Part shown: positions 2,680 through 25,561 of the stretch, in pieces
Layout: every line of letters begins with the position of its first letter
Position numbering within the stretch: the first letter of the stretch is position 1
NCBI GenBank assembly: GCA_016186955.1
Contig: JACPKP010000003.1
Location: forward strand, 2,290-66,289
Reading direction: 5' to 3'
Source: Candidatus Daviesbacteria bacterium
Lineage (GTDB): Bacteria > Patescibacteriota > Microgenomatia > Daviesbacterales > UBA10151
Length of the DNA: 64,000 bases
Program-made: the position numbers and the translations under genes
Notes under the pieces: model-generated
Database searches by the model: none
Seen by the model: only the letters and a program-made list of their open reading frames with translations
What the model was told of the DNA's origin: nothing

Positions 2680-3366
2680 ATGAAGACAACGTTTCTAGTT
2701 AGGTTTCTGGCTTATTTTTTTATCATAGTTGGTTTTCTGGCCCTGGTTTTTGAATTTGGGCCGGTTGCTCAAACAGAGTTTACTTACAGGTATAATAAAT
2801 TTTTTCAAGTGAGATATGTTATACAACCTGTTGTTGGTGATATTACCCAAACACAGCCACCCCCATCAGATACCGGTGGAGTTGGTTTTGGGCAATTAGG
2901 CGCACCAACCGAAAAGATAATCCAGCCTGTCAGTACAGAGTATGGGATTGTAATAGAAAAAATTAATGCCAACGCAAAAGTTGTGCCGGATATAGATGTC
3001 GGCAATGAAAAAGAATATGTTAAAGCCCTGCAAACAGGGGTTGCAGAGGCCAAAGGATCAACCAAACCAGGGGAAAACGGCAACCTGTTTATCTTTTCCC
3101 ATTCAGCCGACGCACCATGGAATATAGTGCGTTTTAACGCTATTTTTTATCTGTTGCGTGAGTTAAACCCCGGGGATCGGGTGATAGTTTTTTACCAGGG
3201 AAGAAGATATGATTATGAGGTTTTTGATAAAAATATCACAGACCCGAAAGATATAAGTTATCTAGTTAACCGTTATGATAAACCTGTTTTGACGCTGCAA
3301 ACCTGTGATCCGCCGGGTACGCTGTCCCGCAGGTTAATTGTCCGGGCCAAGCTAATGGGGAGTTGA
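2680..3366 (+). CDS. sortase family transpeptidase
   Basis: N-terminal TM anchor. Catalytic His region ('LFIFSHS') and the signature 'LTLQTCDPPGT' (TLxTC) with the catalytic Cys. A downstream conserved Arg is present ('RLIVRAKL'). The ORF starts 2 nt after tRNA-Arg. Confidence 0.8.
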   Translation: MKTTFLVRFLAYFFIIVGFLALVFEFGPVAQTEFTYRYNKFFQVRYVIQPVVGDITQTQPPPSDTGGVGFGQLGAPTEKIIQPVSTEYGIVIEKINANAKVVPDIDVGNEKEYVKALQTGVAEAKGSTKPGENGNLFIFSHSADAPWNIVRFNAIFYLLRELNPGDRVIVFYQGRRYDYEVFDKNITDPKDISYLVNRYDKPVLTLQTCDPPGTLSRRLIVRAKLMGS

Positions 3367-6161: not shown

Positions 6162-7550
6162 ATGGCTCGGACTTCATCCATCTATGTTTGCCAGCAATGC
6201 GGGTATCAGTCTCCCCAGTTTTTGGGGAAGTGCCCGCAATGCCAAACATGGAATTCACTGGTGGAGGAAGTGGAAGAAAGTAAAAAGTCAAAGGTCAAAG
6301 GTCAAAAGTATGGTAGCTCTGGAAGAGCTTCCGTCATAAATTTAGTTGATGTACAAAAAGAACATTATGATAGGATAAGTACTGATATCGGGGAGTTTGA
6401 TAGGGTATTGGGTGGCGGGATAGTCAGGGGAGCAGTAGTGCTTATCGCAGGAGATCCGGGGATAGGGAAAAGTACTTTATTGACACAGTTAGCGCTAAAT
6501 GTCAACCTCTCCATGCAATCTAAAAAAAAGATTGCCACGTCCTCCGATGGACATCGGAGTCCTCGCAATGACATAGGAGGGGTGCTTTATATTTCAGGCG
6601 AAGAATCTGCCCACCAGATTAAGCTGAGGGTGGAAAGGATCAAAAAAAATGCTGATTTGGCTGTTTTAAATGAAGTTGATGTAGATGTTATCTCTGAGGC
6701 TATCAGCCTCACCAGGCCTGGTCTTGTGATCGTAGATTCAATCCAAACTCTGGTTACAGGGGACCTGGCGTCTGTAGCAGGTTCTGTCGGCCAGGTTAGG
6801 GAATGTGCAAACAGGCTGCAAAGGGTTGCCAAGGCCAACCATATCCCGGTGTTTATAGTTGGTCATGTGACAAAAGAAGGTACGGTAGCAGGCCCCAAGA
6901 CGCTTGAGCATCTGGTTGATGTAGTGTTAAGCCTGGAAGGTGACCCGCAAAGCAGTTACAGGATACTCAGGGGGGTTAAAAACAGGTTTGGTTCAACAGA
7001 TGAGGTTGGCATTTTTGATATGGGCAGTAGCGGGATGACAGGGGTGGAGAACCCATCCAGGATTTTTCTCGAATCAGAAAGCCATAGGGTAAAAGCTCCG
7101 GGGTCGGTTGTGGCGGCTATCATGACAGGGCTGCGGCCAATCTTGGTCGAGATTCAAGCTTTGGTGACTAAAAGCAACTTGGCTATCCCCAGAAGGATTG
7201 CCCAAGGTATAGATAATAACAGGTTGGTGCTGTTGATAGCGGTCTTATCTAAAAGATTGGGTTTACCGCTTTTTGACAAGGACATATTTGTCAATATTAC
7301 CGGCGGGATTAAAGTCTCTGAGCCTGCCTGTGACCTTGGAGTTTGCATGGCTGTTGTGTCTTCTCTCAAAGAGCAGTTGGTCAAACAGGGGACGGTTTTT
7401 ATTGGGGAGGTGGGGCTTTTGGGTGAGCTAAGAAACATCAGGGAGTTAAGCAAAAGGACAAAAGAGGCTAAAAAACTGGGGTATACAAATGTTATTTCAC
7501 CGGAGAATGCTAAGTCCCTTGATGAAGTTTTGAAAAAAGTGCTAGAATAA
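6162..7550 (+). CDS. radA: DNA repair protein RadA/Sms
   Basis: N-terminal C4 zinc ribbon ('YVCQQCGYQSPQFLGKCPQCQTWNS'), Walker A 'GDPGIGKST', KNRFG motif ('GVKNRFGSTDEVG'), and a C-terminal Lon-protease-like domain. Has a ~30-aa insertion after Walker A. Confidence 0.85.
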   Translation: MARTSSIYVCQQCGYQSPQFLGKCPQCQTWNSLVEEVEESKKSKVKGQKYGSSGRASVINLVDVQKEHYDRISTDIGEFDRVLGGGIVRGAVVLIAGDPGIGKSTLLTQLALNVNLSMQSKKKIATSSDGHRSPRNDIGGVLYISGEESAHQIKLRVERIKKNADLAVLNEVDVDVISEAISLTRPGLVIVDSIQTLVTGDLASVAGSVGQVRECANRLQRVAKANHIPVFIVGHVTKEGTVAGPKTLEHLVDVVLSLEGDPQSSYRILRGVKNRFGSTDEVGIFDMGSSGMTGVENPSRIFLESESHRVKAPGSVVAAIMTGLRPILVEIQALVTKSNLAIPRRIAQGIDNNRLVLLIAVLSKRLGLPLFDKDIFVNITGGIKVSEPACDLGVCMAVVSSLKEQLVKQGTVFIGEVGLLGELRNIRELSKRTKEAKKLGYTNVISPENAKSLDEVLKKVLE

Positions 7551-9615: not shown

Positions 9616-9817
9616 TTGCATTTTGATTTTGTTTGTGCTATATTCCAACAGACTATAACTTCCTGCTGCTGTCTAATTCAAACTGCTACAAAAACTGTCC
9701 GGAAAGGTATATACATGCTTTTATACTGGGGGATTTTTACTGCAGGATTATATATTGGTATGATACTTTTTTTTATAATTTTTTCAGATAAGGAAGAGTA
9801 GTACAAGCTATTTCAAA

Positions 9818-9970
9818 ACGTCATCGCGAGCGACCGAAGAGAGCGTAGCGATCTTATTGTCTAAACGCAATACCACAACCGTTGAGGTTGTGGATGAAGT
9901 TTTTACGAGCAAAGCGAGTACTCCTTAATTAGATTGCTACGTCGCTCGCTTTGCTCGCTCCTCGCAATGA
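9818..9970. repeat. Intergenic imperfect inverted-repeat (MITE-like / structured RNA) element with GTCAT...ATGAC termini
   Basis: Left arm 'cgtcatcgcgagcgaccgaagagagcgtagcgatc' is ~80% complementary to right arm 'gattgctacgtcgctcgctttgctcgctcctcgcaatgacatcg'. There is a central perfect hairpin 'ccacaacc-gttgagg-ttgtgg'. It lies between convergent genes. Arm-like half copies occur in-frame at 13500-13541 and 23966-24006. Confidence 0.6.
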
Positions 9971-10011
9971 CATCGGGTTTTGGAATAGTCTCTAGTCAGT
10001 AGTCTGATAGC

Positions 10012-10317
10012 TTAGATTAACTGTTTTAGTTCAAAGTCAGGGAAGAGGAGCCTTTTTAGGTCCAACTGATGCTTTTGTCCTATTTGCAGGGCTTCCAGGA
10101 CTGTTTTTACGCCTTGCAGGTTAATGCCCCGCTCATGGGTTAGAAATTTTACAAACTGCAGCTCTTCCAGGTTTTTGATAGAGTACATCCTCCTGTTTGT
10201 CCCTGTCCGAAATGGCTTAAGGAAACCCTCATTTTCATAAAGCATCAGGGTCCTCGGATGCAGTTTTAATAAACTTGAGGCTACAGAGATTGTTAAGATA
10301 GGTTCTTCTGTGCGCAT
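10012..10317 (-). CDS. MerR-family HTH transcriptional regulator
   Basis: 101 aa. The N-terminal 'ILTISVASSLLKLHPRTLMLYENEGFLKPFRTGTNRRMYSIKNLEEL' matches the MerR HTH (..TLR.YE..GL..P.R...g.R.Y). Divergent from the giant gene across a 650-bp AT-rich region. Confidence 0.7.
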   Translation of the reverse strand: MRTEEPILTISVASSLLKLHPRTLMLYENEGFLKPFRTGTNRRMYSIKNLEELQFVKFLTHERGINLQGVKTVLEALQIGQKHQLDLKRLLFPDFELKQLI

Positions 10318-10972: not shown

Positions 10973-13900
10973 ATGTCTGCCAAATTAACTGCCAAGGAGC
11001 GCACAAAAGTTATTAAAAGGGCCCTGAAGGGGGAAAACATCTCCGGGCTTTGCAGGGAATATAAAATCTCCCGCACCCTGCTTTACCGTTGGATCAACCG
11101 CTGCAAGCTTGCACAAAAAAAACGTGAGGAAAGACAACTTAGGCCCCAGGACAGGCAGGAGATGATTGAAAGGGTCAAACTGGGGGAGAATGTTGCAAAA
11201 GTTTGCTCTTTATATAATGTATCAAGGACTGCCTTTTATAAGTGGCTGGAAAGGTATGAGCAGGCGCCTGAGGGTCATAAACTTGAAGCTTTATGGGATA
11301 AACAACCCAAAGTAGAACGGTATTTTAATCAAGCTTCAGAGGAATATGAAGAAGCAGTCCTGTCTGCAGTCCGGGAGTATCCAGAGCTTTCATCCCACAA
11401 ACTGGTTTGGGCTTTGCCCCAGGTTGGCGGTAAACCTATATTATCCAACCATGGCGTCCAAAATGTCCTGAAAAGGCATAGCTTAAATACTTATGGACTA
11501 CGCTTGGCATATTCAAAAGCCTACTACAAACCAACCGCACTCTCGCGTTTTTTTGCTTTCATCCAATCTGTTTTGGCAGCCGTTACTGCCCAGCCGGCCC
11601 AAAGAAGGAATGTCCTGGTGCGGGGCAGCTTTGTTTTTGCCCTGACAATCTTTTCCCTGGTTACGGTTTACGGATTATTCTCGCTCTCCAGATTGGTTTT
11701 GGGGGCGGGTGGTGTGGCACTTTCGTTAGGCTTAATACTTTCCCTGATAGCCTTGGGTTTTGGCATGTTTTTCTTCCTCTATTCGCTTAAATACTACATT
11801 ACTATAGCAATGGTGCTGTCATTTTCCAGGAGAAGCGATGAAGAAAATCTCAAATCTCAAAACTCAAATCTAAAATCTGCATCTCAAATCTTAAATCCTA
11901 ATCATCAAAGAAAGTCATTTCTGCAAAACATTCAAGGTACAGGCCGGGATGATGTTATCAAATATCAGGGCGGGTTGGGGCTTAAAGCAGATTTATCAGG
12001 TGTAATTTTAGACAGGCAGCCTTTTGTCTCCATCCACTTGGCTACATATAATGAAAAAAGGGTTTTGGAAAGGTTGCTGACAGCAGCAACCGCCCAGGAA
12101 TATGAAAACTACGAAGTAGTCATAGTTGATGATTCAACAGAACAAGAAAGCATAGATATTTTAAATAAATGGAAAAAACACCCCAGGGTTAAAGTCATCC
12201 ACAGGGAGAGCAGGGAAGGGTACAAGGGGGGGGCGCTCAGGGAAGCTTTAAAAATTAGCAGCCCGCGCACGGAGTTTGTCCTGGTATTTGATGCTGATTT
12301 TATACCATACCCGGATACAATTACCTCATTTTTGAAGTACTTCAAGCTCACAGTTGGGAACCTGGAAACAAAACATTCAACCTCTAATGTCGCTGCAGTG
12401 CAGGGCTACCAGTGGCATGTGCTCAATAAATCAGAAAACTGGATTACCAGAGGGGTAAAAAGCGAATATTCCGGTTCTTATGTCATCGAAAGGTCAGGTG
12501 AGGAGCTGTATTCAGGGTTAAAACAGATTGCAGGCTCGGTATATATGATCAGGGCGGATGTGTTAAAGGAATTGGGTTGGGGGACATCAATTACTGAGGA
12601 TTTCCAGCTGACATTAAGGCTTTATGAAAGGGGATATAAGGTAGTCTTTACCCCATACATACAGGCCCCGGCAGAGGCAGTCTCCACCATCAAAAGGCTA
12701 ATCCGCCAGAGGATGAGGTGGGCAGAGGGACATTCACATAACATCAAAAAGATGCTGATCCCGCTGCTAACCTCAAAAAACCTGACTTGGGCTGAGAAAT
12801 TTGAGGTTTTATACTTGACCCCATATTACCTGCAGGCAGCTTTTTTCATCTTCGGTACCCTGTGCTGGTTTCTGGCTGAGGTGGTTTTCAGGGTCACATT
12901 GCCATTTTGGACTTCCACCTGGGGTTGGTCCCTGGTTTTGACCAACCTGTTTGCCCTGCCCCTAATGAACCTGGTGGGGCTGTTTTTGGAAGAGAGTAAT
13001 GAAAAAGACTACCTGGGGCTGCCTGCCTTTATGGCCCTCTCTTATGTGGTTGCGCCTTTCCAGGGCTATGCAGCCATCAAAGGGTTTTTGGAAAAAGAGG
13101 AAGGGCCATGGTTTAGGACCCCCAAAACAGGCAGGATTACAGATGTCTTTACCCCGGGAAAGTTGTACAAGTTTGTATTTGGCTGGTTGGGTAAAACAGT
13201 CAAACATTCTGCCAATCCCGCCATAGGCCAGATCAACAGGATGTATTCCCAGGAGCAGCTGGCCGAGTTTGCTGCCATGTCGGAAGATAATGTCACCCTG
13301 AGTGAAACGAAGGGTATAAATATATCCTTCGCTAACGCTCAGGATGACAGGGGAAGAATATATCAAACCCAACCAAATGTGGTTGTCCTGGCTATATCAA
13401 AGGCAGTCAGCAAATTAACCGTAAACCAATTTTCAATTTTTATTTTTCAATTTTTAATGAATTTTCAATGGTTCAAAAGATTAAATTCAAAATTAAAAAA
13501 GATTGCCGCGTCGCTCGCTTTGCTCGCGCCTCGCAATGACGGAGGGAGGAGTCCTCATCTGGCTGTTTCCTCCTCCTTTAACACCTTTAATTACTTTAAA
13601 TCCCTTAACAGCCTTAACCACCCTGTCCCTGCTCCCAACAGGCTGGTGGGAAAAATAATCCTGGCCTCTTTTGTTATTGTGTTTATCCTGTTAAACCAGG
13701 CAGCGCTGTTTAACCAATACACTGTAGATTTGCGCCATATGAGTATCAAGGCAAAAGAAGGGGGCCCAATCTCCAGGAAACTGGCTGCCGGCGCACCCCT
13801 GCCCATAGACCCCACGATTGAACAGCAGATTAATATCACCACCCAGGAATATTCCACCCAAAGCATAACAGATATGCCCACAGATAACTCCTTAGGCCTG

Positions 13901-16900
13901 GTGCGCTACACTGCAGCCTCATATACCTCACCCACCACTTATTTTGAGGCAGTCATCAAAAACTCCAACTCCTCAACCACCACTGCTTCCTTGTATGATT
14001 CAACAGGGGCTTATGTGGCAGGCTCAGCTGTCACAGCCACAGGAGCAACATATACCAGGGTCAGGAGCGCTGCAATTACCCTGACCACAGGTACTGATTA
14101 TACTGTCAGACTTAGGTCCTCGCCGGGAAACGGCGCCATATCTTCAGGCACAGCCTCAATCATCGCAGCCAGGATTATAGTGGTCCAGGCCACTGATTCC
14201 AATATTACCAACACCGAGACCCAGGTAGAGGTGGGGGATAATGAGACTACCAGCAAAGTAGACCTAACCCCGCTTTCAAACCCCAAGTATTTTAAGTTTG
14301 ACCCCACCAAATATGATGCAGGCTCTATCACAGCATATTTTGAGGCAACTTTAAAGGCAAGTAATAATACACCCGCTGCTACCTCTACCGGCCCCAATAG
14401 TCCATCTTCCTGCGCTGATGACGGGGCAGTTGGGACACTCACTTGGACTAATGATTCAAATGCTACTGCCCAGGACGACCAGACTGCCGTAATGCAAGGT
14501 ACGGATAATGGAACATCAGAATATGAGGAGTGTGTAGGTTTTAGTTTCAACCTGGCACCAACGGACACAGTAGCTGGGGTGCTTTTGGAGGCGGATATCT
14601 ATTCAAGCGGGACATCAACGCGGCCGATCATTGATAATTCTGTCAAATTGTCTCAGGCAGGCACAATTACCGGCAATGATCAGGCTACAACAGACGCCTG
14701 GCCTACCTCAGATACTGACACCTACACCTCATGGGGTTCATCAAGTAACCTTTGGGGGGTAAGCTGGACACCTGCCGATATCAATGACCCAAACTTTGGG
14801 GCAGGTATCTCAGCCCGCAAGACTACTACCGCAGGGAATCCCGGAACCGGCAAAATTGACCATGTCAGGATGACAGTTTATTATACCCCTGCTGCCGCTG
14901 CACAAACAGCCACAGCGGAACTTTACAACAGGACAGACGGCCTGGCTGTAACAGAATCATCAGTTTCCACATCAAACCTTACCTGGACAAGGGCACGTTC
15001 ATCAGCCCTTTCCACCAATTGGGATACCACCAATGCTGATGAGTATGAGGTCAGGGTAAAAACATCAGACACAACAGCCAATGCCTCCATAGCCAATGCC
15101 AAGGTAGTATTGGTGCAAAATGTGGCCGGGGGGATTGGCAATGTAGAACTATACCATAACTATATCAATGCCCCAGAGAGTCAAAACAGCGCATCGGTTG
15201 GTACATTTAGCACTACCAACCAGGGGCAGATACCGTTAGTAAGGATGCAGGGGAGCTCTGTTATAAACACCATTGGTTCTTCCACCTACGTTTATGTTTT
15301 AGGCGGTTGTAATGCAGCTTGCTCCAGCACCACAGACACGTCCACAGTTTATAAATCAACTATCAATAATGTAACCGGGGATGCCGGTGTGTTCAGCACT
15401 ACTTCCCAGGGCCAGTTGGTTACAGAAAATAGTGATAATGCGGTTGTTACATCATCCTTGGGCGGGACTACATATATATATGAAATCGGGGGGGATAACG
15501 GGGCGAGGAAATCTACCGTATACAAAGCAAGTATCAACTCATCAGGTGATATTGGAACTTTTGCTACCACCAGCCAGGGCCAGATGCCAGCGATATTGGG
15601 TTCTATATCATCAAACAGTATAACAGTAGGTCCTTCCTCATATATTTATATATTGGGGGGTGCGCCTGCAACCGGCCAGTCTTCCACTGTCTATAAATCC
15701 ACCCTAAACTCCTCAAATGGTGATGCAGGCGCTTTTGCCACCACCTCCCAGCAACAGTTGCCTATAAAAGTTAGGGACCACACGTCGGTTTCTACAACCG
15801 TCGGCCCATCTACATATATTTATGTGGTTGGCGGGGAAAGCGCTGCTTTCAGTAGCGCGGTTTACAAATCCACAATTGACAGCTCGGGGGATGTCAGCGC
15901 TGTTTTTGCCACCACCTCCCAGGGGCAGTTACCGCAAATAAGCAGCCAACATTATGCAGTCCTTACTGCAGTTGGCCAATCAACTTATTTATATACTATG
16001 GGAGGAAGCCCGGATGGCGGGACTACGGTTGTCTCCACTGTCTATAAATCCACCCTTGACAGCGCCACAGGTGATCTGTCAACTTTTAGCACCACTAACC
16101 AGCAACAACTGGTTCCGCTTACTTTTGGTCTGTCAGCTAATGCTGCGTTGGTAGGCCCCTCCACCTACCTGTATGTTTTAGGGGGGTACAACGGCAGTAG
16201 TGCTCTATCTACTGTCTACAAAGCCCCCCTCTCCAATGATTTTGACTCTTTTGGCTATAACAACCTGTACAATTCTAATGACTGGATAGGGGGGACATTT
16301 ACTTTTTACCAGGAATCAACCCTAAAACAGACTCAGGCAGGCGTGACAGCCAACTCCAGGCTTACCCCGGGGGGGATTGGCAATGTCTCATCAACCCTGA
16401 TGCCCAACGCTGCAAATGGCAATTTCGGGGTTTTTGCCACCACTTCCCAGGGACAGGTGCCAGAAATTAACTCCAACTTATCCAGCAGTACAGCGATGGT
16501 TAACGGGTCAACATATATTTATGTTTTAGGCGGTAATAATGACAGTGCAAACCAATCCACAGTATATAAGTCCACTGTCAATTCTACAACAGGTGATGCA
16601 GGCGCTTTTGCCACTACCTCCCAGGGACAGCTGCCCCAAATCTTGGAAGGTTTACAGACGCGTTCTTTGGCAGTGGGCAGCTCCACTTATATATATACCC
16701 TGGGTGGGTACACAGGGACAGCATATAAATCTACTGTCTATAAATCCACGCTGAAAGCAGCATCAGATAGCACCAATGGTGATGCAGGCGCTTTTGCCAC
16801 CACCTCCCAGGCCCAGTTGCCGCTTACCAATGGCAACTTTGGCAGCACAATCCTGACTTCAGGCGCCTCAACCTATATTTATGTTATAGGCGGTGCCAGT

Positions 16901-19900
16901 ACCGCCTCCGTTTCTTACAGCACTAATTACAAAGCGCTAATAGACCCTACAACCGGTGATATAGGCGCTTTTGCCACCACTTCCCAGGCCCAGTTGCCGG
17001 CAGCAGGACAAAGGCTTGGCGTAACCTCAGCTGTGATCGGGCCGTCTTCTTATTTATACGTAGGGGGGGGTTGCAGCGGTTGCGGCACCCCTGTGTCAAC
17101 TTTTTATAAAGCCACCATCGACCCTACAACCGGTGATATCGGGACATTAGCTACCACTAACCAAGCGCAGCTGCCTACTGCATTGCGCCAGTTCAATATT
17201 ACATCCACCATTGTCGGCCCTTCTACCTACCTGTATGTTTTCGGGGGCTGCACAGGTGGCGTAAGCTGTGGTAACCAATCCACTGTCTATAAATCCACCC
17301 TAAACTCCTCAAATGGTGATGCCGGCACATTTGCCACCACCTCCCAGGGGCAGCTGGCCCAGCCTCTGATTTGGGTTGGCGGGTCAGGGGCAATAGCTTC
17401 AGCCGGGCCGTCAACTTATTTATATGTATTGGGCGGGCTAAATACATCAAGCGTTTCTATATCCACTGTCTATAAATCAGCCCTGCAGCAAAACCCTTAT
17501 GAACGCCAGCGCTCAGGGGATATCACAAGCTATCTTAATGGGTCACTTGCAGCCAATGCCGGCACATTTGACACCACCAACCAGGCCCAGCTGCCAAAAA
17601 TGTTTCGTCAGCATTCAGCAGTTTCAACGCAGATAGGTAACTCAACATATGTTTATGTGTTGGGTGCATTTACGGATCTTTCTAGTGTATTATCCACAGC
17701 CTACAAATCAACTCTGGATAATAATACTGGTAACCTTAGCCTTTTTAATACAAGTAATCAAGCACAATTATTACAAGCTTTCAGGTTGGCAGCAACCACT
17801 TCTTTGTCAGTTGGTGTATCAACCTATGTTTATGTTCTAGGAGGTTTTACATCCTCTGCAAATATATCAACAGTATATAAAAGTACTATCAATAGCGCCA
17901 CGGGGGATTTGGGAACATTTGATACTACTTCCCAAGGACAAGTCCCACAGGCATTGCGGTCACACACCATAAATAGCGCCCAAATAGGCGTCTCAACATA
18001 TATATATGTTTTGGGAGGAGTTAATACAGGAGGAAGTGATATTTCAACAATTTACACCTCTACGGTCAATAGCGCCACGGGGGATTTGGGAACATTTGAT
18101 ACTACTTCCCAGGCACAGTTACCTAGGGTTGGATCAAGCTTTGCCTCAATTACACAGTCAGTTGGCCCATCAACATATCTTTATGTAATTGGAATACAGG
18201 GCAATACTTCTGTCTATAGGTCCGTAATTAACAGTACTTCAGGTTATTTAGGGGTGTTTGATACAACATCTCAAGGTCAGTTAGTGCAAAATACCACTCA
18301 ACATAGTGCAATTGCAACTGTTTTAGGGCCATCAACTTATATTTATGTATTGGGAGGAAGCAGTATGTCGACAATATACAGAGCAGCGTTAAATTCAAGC
18401 ACTGGAAATATCAACACGTTCACTACTACTTCTCAATCACAACTACTGAACATTTCCCGGGAAAATACTGCAATTATTGCGAATACCGGCCCTTCTACTT
18501 ATATATTTCAATTGGGTGGTTTTGATAATGGGAGTTCAACAACATTTTCAACAGTCTATAAATCAGTCCTCACAGAAGACCTGACCCCGGGCAATTTAAA
18601 TGTTATCCAGACCACTTACCAGGGCCAGCTTCCCGCTGCCCTTTCTTCCCATGCCACAGTTGTCGGGCGGGACCAGGGCGTAAATTATATCTATCAGCTG
18701 GGGGATAACCCCGCATCAACTGTCTATAAATCTGCCATAGATGCCAATGGTTACGCCGGCACCTTTGCCACTACCAACCAGGCCCAGCTTACCCAAACCT
18801 TGAAAAACCTCCAGGCAGTCTCTGCCAGTTATGGCGGCACTACCTATATCTATACCATAGGCGGGGACAACGGCAGCGCCATTACCTCAACAGTCTACCG
18901 GGCCAATTCAAATGGCACCAGCGGGAATTTAACTGTAGCTTTTGCAACAACCAGCCAGGCCCAACTGCCCCAGGGCCTGCAAAACCACCAGGCTGTGATA
19001 GGTGCAACCTCAGGTGACAACTATATTTATGCTTTGGGGGGGTGCAACTTAACTGGTTTTTGTGCTGCATCCAGCACCCAATCCACTGTTTATAAAGCAA
19101 ATATTAAAGTCTCTGCAGATGCCCAAACCTTTGCCACTACCAGCCAGAAACAACTGCTTAAAATTAGTGAGGCGCCTGCTTCTGTTACTGCCACAATGGG
19201 GTCTTCCACATACGTTTATGTATTGGGAGGATATGATCAGGGCGGTGTTATAAACTCTACTGTCTACAAAACAACCCTCAATTCCACAACCGGTGATGCA
19301 GGCGCTTTTGCCACTACCAGCCAGGGGCAATTAGTCGTTGGTTTACAGTACCAATCAGCTTTGGTTTCAACAATTGGCTCCTCCACCTACCTTTATGTTT
19401 TAGGGGGGTATAATGGATCTGATCTCTCCACTGTCTATAAAACAACCCTAAATTCCACAACAGGTGATATAGGCGCTTTTGCCACTACCAACCAGGGACA
19501 ATTAGTGCAAATTAATGAGTCGCACGCCTCTGTTACTACCGCAGTAGGCCCCTCAACCTATGTTTATGTATTGGGGGGAACCAGTGATGGTGGCACAACT
19601 ATCTTCTCCACAGTCTATAAATCCACCATAAATTCCACAACAGGGGATATAGGCGCTTTTGCCACTACCAGCCAGCAACAGCTGCCGGCGCTGAGAGAGA
19701 AACTTGCTTCTTTTGTAGCCGCAATGGGCCCCTCAACTTATGTTTATGTACTGGGAGGGGCTGAAGCCAGCGTCAAATCCACAAACTATAAGGCTACTTT
19801 AAATGCCTCAGGGGATATAGGCGCTTTTGCCACTACCAGCCAGGGACAGTTGCCAAATATTATATATATGCATAGCGCGATCACTTCAACTATTGGTTCT

Positions 19901-21937
19901 TCAACGTATGTCTATGTGTTAGGTGGGAATACCGGTAGCGGTGTCATTTCCACAGTCTATAAATCCACCCTAAATTCTACAACAGGTGATTTAGGCGCTT
20001 TCGCCACTACCAATCAGGCACAATTGTCCCAGCCTTTTTGGCGGCATTCCTCTGTTATCTCTGTACTGGGCCCTTCAACTTATTTTTATATTTTGGGTGG
20101 TTGTGATAATAATTCTTGTACTGCTTCGACAGTCCGTTCCACTGTCTATAAATCAGCCCTCAATACTGACCCAATTGTCCAAACCTTTGCCACCACCTCC
20201 CAATCCCAACTGCCCCAGGTAGTTAAAAACTTCTCTGCCAATTTTACAACAATTTTAGGCACAAATTATATTTATGCCATAGGGGGGGACAGTGGGGCCA
20301 GCTCAGGTACAGGTGATGCAGGCACATTTGACACCACTTCCCAGGGGCAACTGCCGCTTGATGTTAATGCCTACAGACCCTTTAGTGTGAATATAGGTGC
20401 ATCTACTTATGTCTATGTAGTTGGTGGATTTTCCGGCAGCCTCAATAATAAATTGTCTACCAACTACAAAGCTACATTAAATAATACAACCGGTGATGCA
20501 GGCACATTTGCCACCACCAGCCAAGCACAACTTCCTACTGCTTTGAGGAATCACGCCTTGATTAGCACAACAGTGGGCATCTCAACTTATGTTTATACAA
20601 TAGGTGGGGAGAACATCTCCACGGTCTATAAATCCACTATTGTTGGGTCCGGCGCTAATGCCGGCGATCTTGGTACATTTGCTACCACTTCTCAGTCTCA
20701 ACTGCCTGAGGCTAGGAAACAATTGCCGGCCGCTTTGGCCGCAATAGGGTCATCTCAGTATGCTTATGTGGTTGGAGGTTATAATGCTAGCGGTACCAAT
20801 AAATCTACAGTATATAAAGTCAGTATAAATAGTTCATCCGGCGATCTTGGTACATTTGATACCACTTCTCAGTCTCAATTACCCCAAGTCTTGGCTGCTC
20901 ACTCACTGATTGTTCAAACTATTGGTTCATCTACTTATCTTTACGCCGTAGGGGGAGAAAATGGCGGTACTAAATACAGCACCAACTACAAAGCTACATT
21001 AAATAATACAACCGGTGATGTAGGCACTTTTGACACCACCAGCCAGGGACAATTACCCCGCTCTCTGACAAGCTCTACCGCTATTAATGTCAGCGTCGGG
21101 AGCTCATCCTATATTTATGTATTAGGAGGGGATCCGGGAGGTCTGGCAGTATCCACTGTTTATAAAACTACTATTAATGGCACAACTGGTGATGCAGGCA
21201 CATTTGCCACCACCAGCCAGGCCCAATTAATCCGTACTAATGCACAAAATACGGTTTTAACATCAACTGTTGGCCCTTCCTCTTATCTCTATTTCATCGG
21301 GGGTTGTTTGTCCACTAATGGTTGTGCAAATAGTGAAGTGCAGTCTACAGTCTACAGATCCATCTTAGGTTCAACCAAAATAGCAGAATCTACTGTTTAC
21401 AAATCTACTGTAGATTCAAGCGCCAATGTGGGGAGTTTTGCCACCACTGCCCAAACCCAGCTCTCCACTGCCCTGCAGTCCCACGGAACTGCTTTTTTCC
21501 AGAACAGCTCACCCTACCTTTATGTTATAGGCGGGTGTGTTTTTGGAGGTACGCCATGTGGCATAGCAGATACCCGGCAGACAATTTATAGGACTTCCAT
21601 TACTTCCTCGACCGGAGATGTGGGGGCATTTTCCTACTCTGCCAACGGGCTGCCCATAGTTTTAAACAAACTTACAACTACAACTGCCACCTTAGGCGCC
21701 ACCACCTACCTGTATATCTCAGGGGGGGCATTGGGGACAACAGACCAGTCCACATTTTACCAGTCCAGGATCTCCAACTCTGAATTTGACACCCAGATCC
21801 AAAATGCCACAGTCGCCAATTCCTGGCTGGTTGTAGATGTATCATCACTCCAGATCCCCGAGAACCTGCTGGGGTTTTTGCCATTAGGATTATTGTTACC
21901 CAAACTGATGAAAAAGTTCCGGAGGCAAAAAGATTAA
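10973..21937 (+). CDS. Giant (3654 aa) multidomain surface protein: IS481-like transposase HTH region, membrane-embedded processive GT2 glycosyltransferase, ~36 tandem Kelch-like beta-propeller repeats, PEP-CTERM-like (PEN-CTERM) sorting tail
   Basis: Single uninterrupted ORF. aa 1-170 contain two transposase-type HTH motifs ('ISRTLLYRWINR','VSRTAFYKWLERY') plus a 'VQNVLKRHSLN' HTH_32-like segment. TM helices follow. The GT2 domain ('VSIHLATYNEKRV...VVIVDDSTEQ...FDADF...RQRMRWAEG...WFRTPKTG') is followed by cellulose-synthase-like C-terminal TMs. An anchor helix 'GKIILASFVIVFILL' precedes a Ser/Thr-rich region and the repeat '...ST(V)YKSTLNSTTGDAGAFATTSQGQLP..(h)SAV(s)T.VGPSTYIYVLGG...'. C-terminus: 'QIPENLLGFLPLGLLLPKLMKKFRRQKD'. 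Confidence 0.75.
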   Translation: MSAKLTAKERTKVIKRALKGENISGLCREYKISRTLLYRWINRCKLAQKKREERQLRPQDRQEMIERVKLGENVAKVCSLYNVSRTAFYKWLERYEQAPEGHKLEALWDKQPKVERYFNQASEEYEEAVLSAVREYPELSSHKLVWALPQVGGKPILSNHGVQNVLKRHSLNTYGLRLAYSKAYYKPTALSRFFAFIQSVLAAVTAQPAQRRNVLVRGSFVFALTIFSLVTVYGLFSLSRLVLGAGGVALSLGLILSLIALGFGMFFFLYSLKYYITIAMVLSFSRRSDEENLKSQNSNLKSASQILNPNHQRKSFLQNIQGTGRDDVIKYQGGLGLKADLSGVILDRQPFVSIHLATYNEKRVLERLLTAATAQEYENYEVVIVDDSTEQESIDILNKWKKHPRVKVIHRESREGYKGGALREALKISSPRTEFVLVFDADFIPYPDTITSFLKYFKLTVGNLETKHSTSNVAAVQGYQWHVLNKSENWITRGVKSEYSGSYVIERSGEELYSGLKQIAGSVYMIRADVLKELGWGTSITEDFQLTLRLYERGYKVVFTPYIQAPAEAVSTIKRLIRQRMRWAEGHSHNIKKMLIPLLTSKNLTWAEKFEVLYLTPYYLQAAFFIFGTLCWFLAEVVFRVTLPFWTSTWGWSLVLTNLFALPLMNLVGLFLEESNEKDYLGLPAFMALSYVVAPFQGYAAIKGFLEKEEGPWFRTPKTGRITDVFTPGKLYKFVFGWLGKTVKHSANPAIGQINRMYSQEQLAEFAAMSEDNVTLSETKGINISFANAQDDRGRIYQTQPNVVVLAISKAVSKLTVNQFSIFIFQFLMNFQWFKRLNSKLKKIAASLALLAPRNDGGRSPHLAVSSSFNTFNYFKSLNSLNHPVPAPNRLVGKIILASFVIVFILLNQAALFNQYTVDLRHMSIKAKEGGPISRKLAAGAPLPIDPTIEQQINITTQEYSTQSITDMPTDNSLGLVRYTAASYTSPTTYFEAVIKNSNSSTTTASLYDSTGAYVAGSAVTATGATYTRVRSAAITLTTGTDYTVRLRSSPGNGAISSGTASIIAARIIVVQATDSNITNTETQVEVGDNETTSKVDLTPLSNPKYFKFDPTKYDAGSITAYFEATLKASNNTPAATSTGPNSPSSCADDGAVGTLTWTNDSNATAQDDQTAVMQGTDNGTSEYEECVGFSFNLAPTDTVAGVLLEADIYSSGTSTRPIIDNSVKLSQAGTITGNDQATTDAWPTSDTDTYTSWGSSSNLWGVSWTPADINDPNFGAGISARKTTTAGNPGTGKIDHVRMTVYYTPAAAAQTATAELYNRTDGLAVTESSVSTSNLTWTRARSSALSTNWDTTNADEYEVRVKTSDTTANASIANAKVVLVQNVAGGIGNVELYHNYINAPESQNSASVGTFSTTNQGQIPLVRMQGSSVINTIGSSTYVYVLGGCNAACSSTTDTSTVYKSTINNVTGDAGVFSTTSQGQLVTENSDNAVVTSSLGGTTYIYEIGGDNGARKSTVYKASINSSGDIGTFATTSQGQMPAILGSISSNSITVGPSSYIYILGGAPATGQSSTVYKSTLNSSNGDAGAFATTSQQQLPIKVRDHTSVSTTVGPSTYIYVVGGESAAFSSAVYKSTIDSSGDVSAVFATTSQGQLPQISSQHYAVLTAVGQSTYLYTMGGSPDGGTTVVSTVYKSTLDSATGDLSTFSTTNQQQLVPLTFGLSANAALVGPSTYLYVLGGYNGSSALSTVYKAPLSNDFDSFGYNNLYNSNDWIGGTFTFYQESTLKQTQAGVTANSRLTPGGIGNVSSTLMPNAANGNFGVFATTSQGQVPEINSNLSSSTAMVNGSTYIYVLGGNNDSANQSTVYKSTVNSTTGDAGAFATTSQGQLPQILEGLQTRSLAVGSSTYIYTLGGYTGTAYKSTVYKSTLKAASDSTNGDAGAFATTSQAQLPLTNGNFGSTILTSGASTYIYVIGGASTASVSYSTNYKALIDPTTGDIGAFATTSQAQLPAAGQRLGVTSAVIGPSSYLYVGGGCSGCGTPVSTFYKATIDPTTGDIGTLATTNQAQLPTALRQFNITSTIVGPSTYLYVFGGCTGGVSCGNQSTVYKSTLNSSNGDAGTFATTSQGQLAQPLIWVGGSGAIASAGPSTYLYVLGGLNTSSVSISTVYKSALQQNPYERQRSGDITSYLNGSLAANAGTFDTTNQAQLPKMFRQHSAVSTQIGNSTYVYVLGAFTDLSSVLSTAYKSTLDNNTGNLSLFNTSNQAQLLQAFRLAATTSLSVGVSTYVYVLGGFTSSANISTVYKSTINSATGDLGTFDTTSQGQVPQALRSHTINSAQIGVSTYIYVLGGVNTGGSDISTIYTSTVNSATGDLGTFDTTSQAQLPRVGSSFASITQSVGPSTYLYVIGIQGNTSVYRSVINSTSGYLGVFDTTSQGQLVQNTTQHSAIATVLGPSTYIYVLGGSSMSTIYRAALNSSTGNINTFTTTSQSQLLNISRENTAIIANTGPSTYIFQLGGFDNGSSTTFSTVYKSVLTEDLTPGNLNVIQTTYQGQLPAALSSHATVVGRDQGVNYIYQLGDNPASTVYKSAIDANGYAGTFATTNQAQLTQTLKNLQAVSASYGGTTYIYTIGGDNGSAITSTVYRANSNGTSGNLTVAFATTSQAQLPQGLQNHQAVIGATSGDNYIYALGGCNLTGFCAASSTQSTVYKANIKVSADAQTFATTSQKQLLKISEAPASVTATMGSSTYVYVLGGYDQGGVINSTVYKTTLNSTTGDAGAFATTSQGQLVVGLQYQSALVSTIGSSTYLYVLGGYNGSDLSTVYKTTLNSTTGDIGAFATTNQGQLVQINESHASVTTAVGPSTYVYVLGGTSDGGTTIFSTVYKSTINSTTGDIGAFATTSQQQLPALREKLASFVAAMGPSTYVYVLGGAEASVKSTNYKATLNASGDIGAFATTSQGQLPNIIYMHSAITSTIGSSTYVYVLGGNTGSGVISTVYKSTLNSTTGDLGAFATTNQAQLSQPFWRHSSVISVLGPSTYFYILGGCDNNSCTASTVRSTVYKSALNTDPIVQTFATTSQSQLPQVVKNFSANFTTILGTNYIYAIGGDSGASSGTGDAGTFDTTSQGQLPLDVNAYRPFSVNIGASTYVYVVGGFSGSLNNKLSTNYKATLNNTTGDAGTFATTSQAQLPTALRNHALISTTVGISTYVYTIGGENISTVYKSTIVGSGANAGDLGTFATTSQSQLPEARKQLPAALAAIGSSQYAYVVGGYNASGTNKSTVYKVSINSSSGDLGTFDTTSQSQLPQVLAAHSLIVQTIGSSTYLYAVGGENGGTKYSTNYKATLNNTTGDVGTFDTTSQGQLPRSLTSSTAINVSVGSSSYIYVLGGDPGGLAVSTVYKTTINGTTGDAGTFATTSQAQLIRTNAQNTVLTSTVGPSSYLYFIGGCLSTNGCANSEVQSTVYRSILGSTKIAESTVYKSTVDSSANVGSFATTAQTQLSTALQSHGTAFFQNSSPYLYVIGGCVFGGTPCGIADTRQTIYRTSITSSTGDVGAFSYSANGLPIVLNKLTTTTATLGATTYLYISGGALGTTDQSTFYQSRISNSEFDTQIQNATVANSWLVVDVSSLQIPENLLGFLPLGLLLPKLMKKFRRQKD
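15190..21790 (+). repeat. Coding tandem array of ~36 Kelch-like ~60-aa repeats (~180 nt period) inside the giant gene
   Basis: Reiterated 'STVYKST(L/I)NSTTGD(A/I/L)G(A/T)FATTSQ(G/A)QLP' plus '...VGPSTY(I/L/V)YVLGG' units, seen directly in the translation. Copies are divergent at the DNA level but some are near-identical (e.g. 19255-19330 vs 19435-19500). Confidence 0.8.
21854..21934 (+). other. C-terminal PEP-CTERM-like sorting signal (PEN motif - TM helix - basic cluster) of the giant protein
   Basis: 'IPEN' + 'LLGFLPLGLLLP' + 'KLMKKFRRQKD' mirrors the tripartite PEP-CTERM architecture (PEP - hydrophobic - Arg/Lys-rich). Confidence 0.6.
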
Positions 21938-23506: not shown

Positions 23507-25561
23507 ATGATACAAACTGTCTTGGCTCTCTCCCAATTCTTTATCAATAACTTCCCTCCGCCAGCTGGCGGATGGTGGTACCCATACTGGTATTTGGGCA
23601 ACCCTTACCATTATCTGATAGGGCCGGTGGTGCCAATAATATTGGCAATTATAAATTTCAAATTTCAAATTTCAAATTTTGGATTTCCAATATATTTAGG
23701 GTTGCTGGGAGTGTCATGGGTGGTTGGAGGAGTGGGGGTGTATCAGCTGGTAGAAAAGCTATCTCAAACCTCAAATCGCAAATCTCAAATCCTTTATGCT
23801 TTACTATTTATGTTCCTGCCCTTCTCGTTGTTTCTTTTGGCTTACTCAAATGGGTTGTATCACTTTGCCTGGGGGTTTTTGCCATGGGTTTTTGTGGTAT
23901 TTTTACGCTTTCTTGTCGGATCTCCCATGTCATTGCGAGACCACAAAGTGGCGAAGCAATCTAATTTAATAAAGATTGCCGCGCTCCCTTCAGTCGCTCG
24001 CAATGACGAAGAAAAAAAGGGCATAAAAATTGCCCTGTTGCTTAGTATTTTGGTATCCTTTGTACTGTTGGTAGATGTTTCGATACTGCTTCCAATGCTG
24101 GTAGGGTTTGTTTGTTTAGGGGTGGTAATCAAGGATATTAAAGGAGTTAAGGGAATTAATGGGGGCGGGGAATATCAGGTTTTTAAAACTTTCTTTGTAT
24201 TATTGTTTGCCCTAAGCCTGGCTACAATCTGGTACACACCCGGGTTTTGGCTGACCCTGTTGCAAAACCCCTCATTTGGTGGGATGCCGCTTGTTAATTT
24301 GGGGAAATTTTTATTCCAGCTGCTTTTGAACCTGGTCCCTATCCTGGCAGCGGTTTGGGTGGTCAAGCTGAGAATGAAAAATTTGTCCCGGACAGCATAC
24401 TTCGGGCTGCTTTTTTTGTCATCATTTCTTTTTCTTACTATAATAAGGTATTTATCTGATCCTGATTTTGTGCAGGACTGGATCGGGTTTTTTATAGAGA
24501 TCCAGTTTGGGTTGGCGATTTTGCTGGGCTCTTTTTTGTCATCCTCGCGTATGCGGGGATCTTTTAGAAGATTGATTCCCGCTTTCGCGGGAATGACAGT
24601 ACTATTGGTATTTATTGTAAAAGGTTGGATGGGTGGCGAAAATGTAAAATATCAATCCAAGATTGTATCCATGCTGAAAAATGTGCCCAAAGACGAGCGG
24701 GTGTTTCTTTCAGGCACAAGCGTTTTTTGGGCTAACCAATACCTTGATATTATACAGGTGAGGGGAGGGGTAGACCAGGCATCAATCCATCCTTACTGGG
24801 CTGATGGGGCATACCAGATTAGGGAAGGGGAAAATAGTGAGTTATCTTTAAACTGGCTTAGGGCTTTAGGCGTAAGCTGGATTTTAGTGCATAGTGGAGG
24901 GTCAGATGAGCCTTACAGGGATTTTAAGCGCCCTGAGAAGTTTACCCAAATTTGTCATCCCCGACTTGATCGGGGATCCATTTTGGAAAAGGATCCTCGC
25001 ATTCGCGAGGATGACACAATATGTAAGATTGTTAAGGGAATTAAGGGGGATACTCTATATAAGGTAGGCGGGGCAAGCATTGCCAGGGTGGCTGATAAAT
25101 CAATATTGGAGGTTAAAAAACCAAAAAACGGCGCAGATGCCCAAACATTGGCAAAATATGTCAACACCTTCAAAATACACCCCGGGGGTTCACCCCCGGG
25201 GTGGGAAAACAGGCCTGGCTTTACGAACGTAATTGAGGTAGATGCTGATTTGGGAAAGGATGAGGTGATCTCTTTGGCGATTGCCTATGACAGGGGATGG
25301 CAAGTTCAACAGTTCCACCCGGGGGGTGGAACTGGAGGAGTGAGGCTGGTCAAAGATAATCTGGGTAATATAGTTTTGATACCTGGTGCAGTCGGCCGGA
25401 TCAGCTTGAGCTTGGTTTATCAGACCCCGGTTTGGGAGAGGGCAGCGCCTGTTTTGATATCTTTGGTGCTTCTTTTTATATTGGTAAATTATGATAAATC
25501 CTATCCCGGGATGTCCCGAATCCTGGCTAAGGTGGGGCATGGATTAGGGGAGGAAGAATAA
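23507..25561 (+). CDS. large polytopic membrane protein (possible GT-C-like) carrying multiple in-frame mini-element insertions
   Basis: 684 aa, many TM helices ('WWYPYWYLGNPYHY' N-terminal region). In-frame copies of heptamer repeats (ISNFKFQISNFGF at 23640-23700), a GTCAT-family half element (23966-24006), two hairpin MITEs (24537-24597, 24954-25015) and caccccgggggtg palindromes (25178-25204, ~25318-25335). Confidence 0.5.
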   Translation: MIQTVLALSQFFINNFPPPAGGWWYPYWYLGNPYHYLIGPVVPIILAIINFKFQISNFGFPIYLGLLGVSWVVGGVGVYQLVEKLSQTSNRKSQILYALLFMFLPFSLFLLAYSNGLYHFAWGFLPWVFVVFLRFLVGSPMSLRDHKVAKQSNLIKIAALPSVARNDEEKKGIKIALLLSILVSFVLLVDVSILLPMLVGFVCLGVVIKDIKGVKGINGGGEYQVFKTFFVLLFALSLATIWYTPGFWLTLLQNPSFGGMPLVNLGKFLFQLLLNLVPILAAVWVVKLRMKNLSRTAYFGLLFLSSFLFLTIIRYLSDPDFVQDWIGFFIEIQFGLAILLGSFLSSSRMRGSFRRLIPAFAGMTVLLVFIVKGWMGGENVKYQSKIVSMLKNVPKDERVFLSGTSVFWANQYLDIIQVRGGVDQASIHPYWADGAYQIREGENSELSLNWLRALGVSWILVHSGGSDEPYRDFKRPEKFTQICHPRLDRGSILEKDPRIREDDTICKIVKGIKGDTLYKVGGASIARVADKSILEVKKPKNGADAQTLAKYVNTFKIHPGGSPPGWENRPGFTNVIEVDADLGKDEVISLAIAYDRGWQVQQFHPGGGTGGVRLVKDNLGNIVLIPGAVGRISLSLVYQTPVWERAAPVLISLVLLFILVNYDKSYPGMSRILAKVGHGLGEEE
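24537..24597. repeat. Hairpin MITE, GTCAT...ATGAC family (in-frame in CDS)
   Basis: 'gtcatcctcgcgtatgcggggatc-ttttagaa-gattgattcccgctttcgcgggaatgac'. Terminal inverted repeats plus the internal hairpin cccgc-tttc-gcggg. Encodes 'SSRMRGSFRRLIPAFAGMT'. Confidence 0.6.
24954..25015. repeat. Hairpin MITE, GTCAT...ATGAC family (in-frame in CDS)
   Basis: 'gtcatccccgacttgatcggggatcc-attttggaaaa-ggatcctcgcattcgcgaggatgac'. TIR gtcatcc/ggatgac and two internal hairpins. Confidence 0.6.

Follow-up and report, generated by a model that had tools for sequence, protein, structure and literature searches.

Two descriptions of short, tagged DNA hairpins in bacteria come closest to the repeats reported here. 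The CGTC-tagged REPs carry a CGTC or TGTC tag (a CCTC variant is allowed), a stem of 8–9 bp starting with AT, a loop of 4–5 nt, and an unpaired tail of 3 nt with the consensus CCA (Di Nocera, De Gregorio, & Rocco, 2013, BMC Genomics 14:522). They occur mostly as dimers with the tags outside and spacers of 20–100 bp, and heterodimers are frequent; in-frame intragenic copies exist, often in DNA-repair genes, no transposase is associated with them, and dRS3 of Neisseria and RPE-4 and RPE-6 of Rickettsia belong to them (Di Nocera et al., 2013). In Neisseria, the NTS repeat (CGTCATTCCCGCGMAVGCGGGAATCYRG) is bound and cut, as single-stranded DNA only, by SsnA, a GIY-YIG protein of 94 aa; the genes of its homologues are typically flanked by Ssn-related motifs (SRM), for which the regular expression HGTCWYN(0-2)YYVSBRHN(0-5)WNVSBRGN(0-2)RNCYNB was given (Chenal et al., 2025, Nat Commun 16:2388). 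Ssn, a single-domain endonuclease, binds the hairpin of the tagged strand, and its cut falls upstream of the tag by a few bases; the three bases before the palindrome and the C after it are critical for cutting and binding, and strand-specific binding and cleavage are known only for the Neisseria and Wolbachia pairs (Chenal et al., 2025). Here we analyzed 64,000 nucleotides of a Candidatus Daviesbacteria bacterium (contig JACPKP010000003.1, positions 2,290 to 66,289; hereafter the window), with a set of genes such as is usual in the candidate phyla radiation (CPR) and a RadA protein 100% identical to one that NCBI lists under Candidatus Daviesbacteria, starting from an intergenic palindromic element at 9820–9971. 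Our results showed that this element is a head-to-head dimer of two short GTC-tagged DNA hairpin repeats with the tags outward. The repeat family is widespread and already known, as CGTC-tagged REPs and Ssn-related motifs, and the element is a long-loop variant missed by the published definitions. We observed that the units are dispersed, that they are inserted relative to homologues and to a syntenic relative, and that they bracket Ssn-like genes elsewhere; they are probably selfish single-stranded-DNA hairpin repeats of the Ssn/CGTC-REP kind, and in this bacterium several genes contain them in frame.

The element is 152 nt long, with GTCAT at one end and ATGAC at the other, and lies between two convergent genes, one for a 28-aa peptide (9716–9801, + strand) and one for a MerR-family protein (10012–10317, − strand). 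An earlier note on this DNA, made from the letters alone, had described an intergenic palindrome with inverted arms and a central hairpin at this place, and such a palindrome is indeed present. The bounds proposed there (9818–9970) are too narrow, as the palindrome extends to 9808–9988, where an outer inverted repeat of 12 nt (CTATTTCAAAAC / GTTTTGGAATAG, 92% complementary) surrounds the dimer. The left arm is a unit of what we call type A (9820–9854, + strand), reading cGTC ATCGC gagcgaccgaagagagcgta GCGAT CT, and the right arm is a second one (9931–9971, − strand), reading tGTC ATTGC gaggagcgagcaaagcgagcgacgta GCAAT CT. The spacer holds a perfect 8-bp hairpin in mid-element (9873–9893) and, at 9906–9918 on the + strand, a fragment (CGAGCAAAGCGAG) resembling the interior of type A units that is complementary to 9945–9957 over 13 nt at 100%.

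The search for further units in the window revealed 12 at seven loci, six of type A and six of a second type, B. Type A has the design YGTC-ATYGC-GAG…CGNR-GCRAT-CT, and the pattern GTCATYGCGAG-N10-30-GCRATCT gave six matches against 0.00 expected (6529–6572, 9820–9854, 9931–9971, 13500–13540, 23929–23962, and 23973–24007). In type B, TGTC precedes a stem of 8 bp that begins with AT and encloses a loop of 4–5 nt; its six units compare with 0.27 expected and with a maximum of two across 200 random sequences. They form head-to-head dimers at 24538–24597 (24538–24563 on the + strand and 24572–24597 on the − strand; the right unit is GTCATTCCCGCGAAAGCGGGAATC), at 24954–25015 (a heterodimer of 24954–24980, +, and 24990–25015, −), and at 41833–41904 (41833–41859, +, and 41879–41904, −). 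The earlier note had listed shorter relatives at 24537–24597, 24954–25015, and 41833–41904; each of them does contain two hairpins with GTC and an 8-bp stem. It had also placed copies of one arm in two genes. The right arm of 9820–9971 recurs, as claimed, in the giant gene at 13500–13540 (92.7% over 41 nt) and again at 23972–24008 (83.8% over 37 nt), where the copy, put at 23966–24006 in the note, is really part of a complete two-armed element, the compact type A dimer at 23929–24007 (23929–23962 on the + strand and 23973–24007 on the − strand), whose left arm had been missed.

Ten of the units thus pair into five head-to-head dimers with the GTC tags outside in all five, so that five of the seven loci are head-to-head; the spacers are 8–76 nt long, and four of the five dimers are heterodimers. 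The tag YGTC was found in 12/12 units, as cGTC in three and tGTC in three of type A and as tGTC in all six of type B. A C follows the palindrome in every unit, the tails being CCA (twice), CCT, CTT, CAA, and CTA in type B and CTT or CTA in type A. What the two types have in common is therefore the YGTC tag, a palindrome starting with AT, and then C. When the type A units of all loci were pooled (421 units), GTC was preceded by T in 62% and by C in 31%; when a target motif upstream was sought, only this position −1 was biased (T or C), and positions −14 to −2 were not.

Inverted termini (GTCAT...ATGAC), a length of 60–150 bp, and dispersal are also what would be expected of classical miniature inverted-repeat transposable elements, deletion derivatives of DDE-transposase insertion sequences with terminal inverted repeats and target-site duplications. 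We regard this origin as very improbable, because no flanking direct repeats were present at any of the seven loci, each arm is itself a hairpin, and a single arm stands alone at 13500–13540. The left and right arms are often different hairpins with only 5–8 terminal bases in common, and the spacer varies in length from 4 to 73 nt. We found no insertion sequence with matching ends and no DDE transposase linked to the units; transposase-type helix-turn-helix domains do occur in the giant open reading frame (ORF) of the window, but not beside any unit.

The hairpins differ in build between the two types. All six type B units have a loop of 4 or 5 nt, their stems pair perfectly except for a single mismatch in one of the six, and as single DNA strands they gave z scores of −3.3 to −4.8 against shuffles. 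A compensatory change from C-G to G-C distinguishes the left stem of the dimer at 41833 from that at 24954. Type A units have an outer stem of only 5 bp (ATYGC/GCRAT), with 19–29 nt between the stem halves, and this stem covaries: in all the DNA gathered, 827 of 1153 GTCATNNNGAR sites were followed downstream by a perfectly complementary copy of NNN plus ATC, compared with 179 ± 10 matches when NNN was permuted. At least eight type A stem types are in use. In roughly half of the long variants, the inner segment folded better than shuffled versions of itself, and the single-stranded unit at 6529–6572, in radA, reached a z of −3.2.

Six of the loci lie inside long ORFs, which make up ~94% of the window, and no stop codon interrupts any of the six in the frame that is read. 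The earlier note had counted at least five in-frame intragenic copies; the number should be raised to six, since the copy in radA was missed. Element 9820–9971 has stops in all six frames. Readable frames in every intragenic copy and stops in the intergenic one fit the survival of only readable insertions. The note's wider claim, that one superfamily colonizes coding sequence, is borne out by the common design of types A and B and by the alignments described below, which identify the intragenic copies as insertions relative to homologues.

In the DNA-repair gene radA, the type A unit (6529–6572, − strand) belongs to an insert of 25 codons at about 6507–6581 (LSMQSKKKIATSSDGHRSPRNDIGG), in which only the tail TGCAATCT is left of a left unit. 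GTCAAC in radA was considered as a degenerate left tag and rejected, because the "VN" that it encodes aligns with native "LN/IN" of the homologues. The closest homologue (P0122, on the Daviesbacteria contig L203; 70% identity) reads LALNLN-QVLY, without the insert. Among the 120 closest homologues, about one third had no insert at this site and roughly two thirds had varied inserts, among them dimers of type A (NVIARSETTKQS…EIAxLPSVARND) as well as mixed ones. The site is a hotspot at residues ~115–140 (6500–6585 of the window), between LTQLALNxN and VLYVxGEES, that accommodates several unrelated repeat families with up to ~60 residues.

Three elements lie in the membrane-protein gene 23507–25561. 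The first (23929–24007), which is in frame and forms a segment of 32 aa, was absent from 11/11 aligned homologues. At the site of the second (24538–24597), the closest homologue (P0355) has a related element (WIPAFAGMT), which the other homologues lack. The third (24954–25015) was absent from most homologues, and a different dimer occupied the same site in a distant one (P0359). A possible match of this 684-aa protein with a PMT_2-like protein of 683 aa, encoded next to radA on the Daviesbacteria contig L205, was discarded as the two are not homologous. In gene 40489–42468, an alignment of paralogues indicated that the in-frame dimer 41833–41904 is a lineage-specific insert. The same loop is filled in paralogues by AAATTTCAAATTT runs (peptide NFKFQISNF), which occur inside genes at 23640–23692, 29116–29154, 33802–33854, and 53782–53854.

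The remaining intragenic copy, the single type A unit at 13500–13540 (− strand), is in frame (KIAASLALLAPRND) in the giant ORF of 3654 aa (10973–21937). This ORF begins with transposase-type helix-turn-helix domains (HTH_28, HTH_23, HTH_29, and HTH_Tnp_IS630), followed by a GT2 glycosyltransferase domain and then dozens of repeats of ~58 aa (~174 nt) with one weak match to Kelch_1. It may be one gene, or several fused by read-through of the repeats.

In-frame copies raise the question of whether the peptides (…IAxS…PRND, IPAFAGMT) are what is selected, as modules, with the similarity of the DNA as a by-product. The right arms of the three intragenic type A loci do share a frame, KIA…RND, which is unremarkable because in this orientation one of the three frames is closed and just two can be used. 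Like DNA occurs in the non-coding element 9820–9971 and beside ssn genes, no two of the three type B dimers share a frame and their peptides are unrelated, and it is the base pairing that is conserved, not the residues. Selection on peptide modules is thus extremely improbable as the cause of the repeats.

The intergenic element was compared with two other Daviesbacteria contigs. In L203, which is syntenic, the spacer between the neighboring genes lacks the element and is 107 bp long; that of the window measures 396 bp. The gene for the hydrophobic 28-aa peptide (9716–9801) is inverted relative to its orthologue in L203 (7188–7271): there it follows the MerR gene on the same strand, and in the window it is convergent with it, with the palindrome in between, an arrangement that suggests a small inversion at the element. 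In L205, a related dimer at 3050–3160, at a non-homologous locus upstream of radA, is enclosed by the same outer flanks (TATTTCAAAAC ... GGGTTTTGAAA) and has the same ATCGC-left/ATTGC-right composition with a spacer of just 12 nt; L205 radA itself contains a mixed dimer. Element 9820–9971 therefore corresponds to that short-spacer dimer plus ~66 extra nucleotides of spacer, including the central hairpin, which the L205 dimer lacks. Among 325 loci, the outer flank was found only in the window and L205, and scans of viral contigs with the outer flank of the composite and the full left arm gave no match.

As RNA, the + strand of the element reached −60.9 kcal/mol (z −5.6) and its − strand −62.6 kcal/mol (z −5.3), and none of 200 shuffles was as good in either case; the comparison with shuffled controls, to which the earlier note had pointed, came out in favor of structure. 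With the position between convergent genes, this fold could indicate a functional RNA or terminator hairpin kept by selection, terminating or stabilizing transcripts, rather than mobile DNA. The central hairpin 9873–9893 is terminator-like for MerR on the − strand, as judged by a consensus scan and folding only, and REPs in the genomes studied earlier are mostly extragenic and follow closely on the 3′ ends of genes (Di Nocera et al., 2013). We nevertheless find this explanation unlikely for the family, because six of the seven loci are inside ORFs, in all three frames, where termination would be harmful, and because the dimer in L205 has no such terminator-like hairpin. SsnA acts on single-stranded DNA, not RNA (Chenal et al., 2025). 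When the whole window was scanned against Rfam under permissive filters, no family was found at 9818–9970, so the suggestion in the earlier note of a structured small RNA (sRNA) there received no support from Rfam. A role as RNA or terminator is possible as a secondary, co-opted one of the intergenic copy only. The sole Rfam match in the window was a weak one to FtrB, at 41810–41930 (− strand), over a type B dimer, with 30.5 bits where the gathering score is 66 (E 0.57); it hints that the Francisella sRNA FtrB may itself derive from such a repeat.

Because type A lies outside both the SRM regular expression and the stem and loop sizes of the CGTC REPs, its link to Ssn was tested independently. 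The starting point for a homologue alignment was a viral contig (L089) with an Ssn-like gene adjoining a type A dimer. The proteins retrieved were 94–104 aa long and matched the Pfam GIY-YIG family, and in their alignment (A2) Y6 and Y17 were invariant and E64 nearly so; these are the residues mutated in SsnA. We then analyzed 80 loci from many phyla (559 kb), picked solely by homology to the Ssn-like GIY-YIG protein. Of the 13 type A units in these loci, 12 were within 206 bp of the Ssn-like gene, typically one on each side with the tags outward. Generic units, by a structural definition of our own, reached a density of 4.33 per kb up to 250 bp from the gene versus 0.30 per kb beyond (14-fold); at least one was nearby in 76/80 loci and they stood on both sides in 61/80, with tags outward as the preferred orientation.

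The left arm of the intergenic element leads to the same genes. Its first 20 nt (from 9820 on) had an exact match in at least 120 metagenome stretches, three of them with an Ssn-like gene. In L228, this gene lies between two units of the left-arm subfamily, one immediately upstream of it (7181–7214), and in L254 it is bracketed by ATCGC+ATTGC dimers like element 9820–9971. Ssn-like genes also lie between identical or near-identical inverted type A units in L201 (3925–3958 and 4309–4342), L139, L141, and L190; these flanks look like the terminal repeats of insertion sequences. Type A is common on contigs classed as viral: in the IMG/VR loci (L002–L121), at least 120 stretches and 176 pattern matches were counted in 1.06 Mb. 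Adjacent generic pairs there were head-to-head in 30 cases, head-to-tail in 42, and tail-to-tail in 11. A search of the viral contigs with one Ssn-like protein recovered only itself.

These associations also bear on the possibility that the units are REP or REPIN elements moved by a RAYT, a Y1/HUH enzyme of the IS200/IS605 type that recognizes a hairpin with an unpaired tag and moves inverted doublets. The outline is the same, in that the hairpin is tagged, the doublets are inverted, terminal duplications are lacking, and the action is on single strands, and repeats tagged GTAG and those tagged CGTC were treated as sister superfamilies (Di Nocera et al., 2013). The tag is YGTC, however, and not GTAG, and Di Nocera et al. 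(2013) found CGTC repeats to flank neither a RAYT gene nor that of any other transposase. The units cluster around Ssn-like GIY-YIG genes, although no search aimed at Y1 transposases was made. We consider movement by a RAYT improbable.

We therefore favor Ssn/CGTC-REP-type repeats and propose that in this Daviesbacteria genome they are spreading, or did so in the past, as the non-autonomous partners of a nuclease gene that would lie in another part of the genome or have been present in an ancestor. With ~94% of the window coding, most landings would have been in genes. The survivors would be the copies that kept the frame, without stops, in tolerant surface loops, a filter that would explain the in-frame peptides (…IAxS…PRND, VIPDLIRDP…FRGND). 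The spacer hairpin of the intergenic copy may have been co-opted as a terminator for MerR.

Several results weigh against this proposal. Four of the six units of type A, taken as single-stranded DNA, show no folding advantage over shuffles (z +1.0 to −0.3); the type A hairpin is supported by the covariation of its outer stem instead. Type A units do not have the stem and loop sizes of CGTC REPs, and 0/6 match the SRM regular expression. That expression also matches none of the 80 Ssn-like loci, so that the link between type A and Ssn rests on our structural definition and on the shared protein features. The retrieved proteins are called Ssn-like from their GIY-YIG match and conserved residues. 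No GIY-YIG gene was found in the 64-kb window, with a regular expression and a hidden Markov model built from 120 homologues, or in 38 kb from three related Daviesbacteria contigs. The sole ssn locus labeled as CPR (L159, "Roizmanbacteria") was dropped as evidence for Ssn in this group: its protein is 85–96% identical to proteins of other organisms, some labeled Deltaproteobacteria or Desulfobacterales, and for this reason the contig may be mis-binned. We saw no target-site duplication and found no near-identical empty site, so the element boundaries are approximate; both the boundaries and the insertion itself are deduced from comparisons at 65–70% identity. Finally, Ssn is known to bind and cut the hairpin and to modulate transformation, and is not known to transpose the repeats (Chenal et al., 2025).

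A further idea, which we advance tentatively and consider rather doubtful, is that the type A or "GAG-class" hairpins form a large Ssn-type branch outside the published motifs that is possibly actively site-selective in CPR bacteria. They appear to have entered the same codon-level sites of essential proteins repeatedly and independently, for example the RadA loop after the Walker A helix and loops of the membrane protein encoded by 23507–25561. Such repeated entry could mean that the machinery targets particular single-stranded sites, instead of selection only sifting random hits. If this were true, the elements would be a systematic source of variation in protein loops in reduced genomes. 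The RadA site, with inserts in roughly two thirds of the homologues, offers a natural system in which to distinguish targeted from tolerated insertion.

Other palindromic repeats are present in the window. A third family, GC-rich and ~102 nt long, occurs at 40849–40950, 46185–46286, and 52879–52980, with RNA minimum free energies of −42 to −52 kcal/mol. Three paralogous membrane-protein genes carry it at one shared position, where its in-frame translation is ARGPAAAVSRRVSSVV.LPAGTRRDPSAASPLAT, and similar peptides are found at the RadA hotspot in other Daviesbacteria. Palindromes of the CACCCCGGGGGTG type occur at 28794–28834, 44436–44476, 53124–53164, and 39025–39051; the copies at 28794, 44436, and 53124 encode TPGVKKMQLHPRG-like segments in paralogous membrane-protein genes. 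They are probably the first family to which the earlier note alluded when it called the GTCAT...ATGAC repeats a second, independent one.

Our results extend the GTC-tagged hairpin repeats, with their link to the recently characterized single-strand nucleases of the Ssn type, to a CPR genome, where most copies in this window are intragenic. The ATYGC-GAG… class is common and lies outside both published definitions, yet it brackets Ssn-like genes; surveys that use those definitions probably undercount the family. In a full-text literature search, type A sequences matched nothing but unrelated primers. For annotation, …IAxSLxxxAPRND or VIPDLIRDP…FRGND in CPR proteins should be read as repeat-encoded inserts and not as conserved protein motifs.

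Compared with the CGTC REPs, type B units share the tag, the 8-bp stem starting with AT, the loop of 4–5 nt, a short tail (with the consensus CCA in two of six units), the dimers with tags outside, and the intragenic copies. Type A differs in having five Watson–Crick outer pairs, the conserved GAG…CGNR, and a variable inner segment of 13–24 nt in place of the 4–5-nt loop. The host also differs, as CPR bacteria are outside the 2013 survey, and here six of seven loci are intragenic. The likeness to NTS and SRM is close for type B: 5/6 units match the SRM regular expression versus 0.09 expected, two match the 28-nt Neisseria NTS consensus with 2–3 mismatches, all outside the hairpin, and the right unit GTCATTCCCGCGAAAGCGGGAATC is the NTS core. 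The bases that are critical for Ssn, GTC before the palindrome and C after it, are exactly those shared by types A and B. In Neisseria, the repeats cluster around genes (Chenal et al., 2025), whereas those of the window are within coding sequence.

This intragenic bias parallels that of the Rickettsia palindromic elements (RPE), which, like the window repeats, are palindromic and inserted in frame in genes, in a host of a different phylum. They reportedly occur in many unrelated protein genes of a small, gene-dense genome. Rickettsia palindromic elements are tolerated as extra peptide segments. RPE-1 is longer (~100–150 bp) and seemingly unrelated in sequence to the window repeats. REPINs are inverted doublets of tagged hairpins and non-autonomous partners of a single-copy gene that is flanked by the repeats. 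The REPIN/RAYT system has a GTAG tag and a Y1/HUH transposase as its partner, whereas the repeats of this window have a YGTC tag and a link to GIY-YIG proteins.

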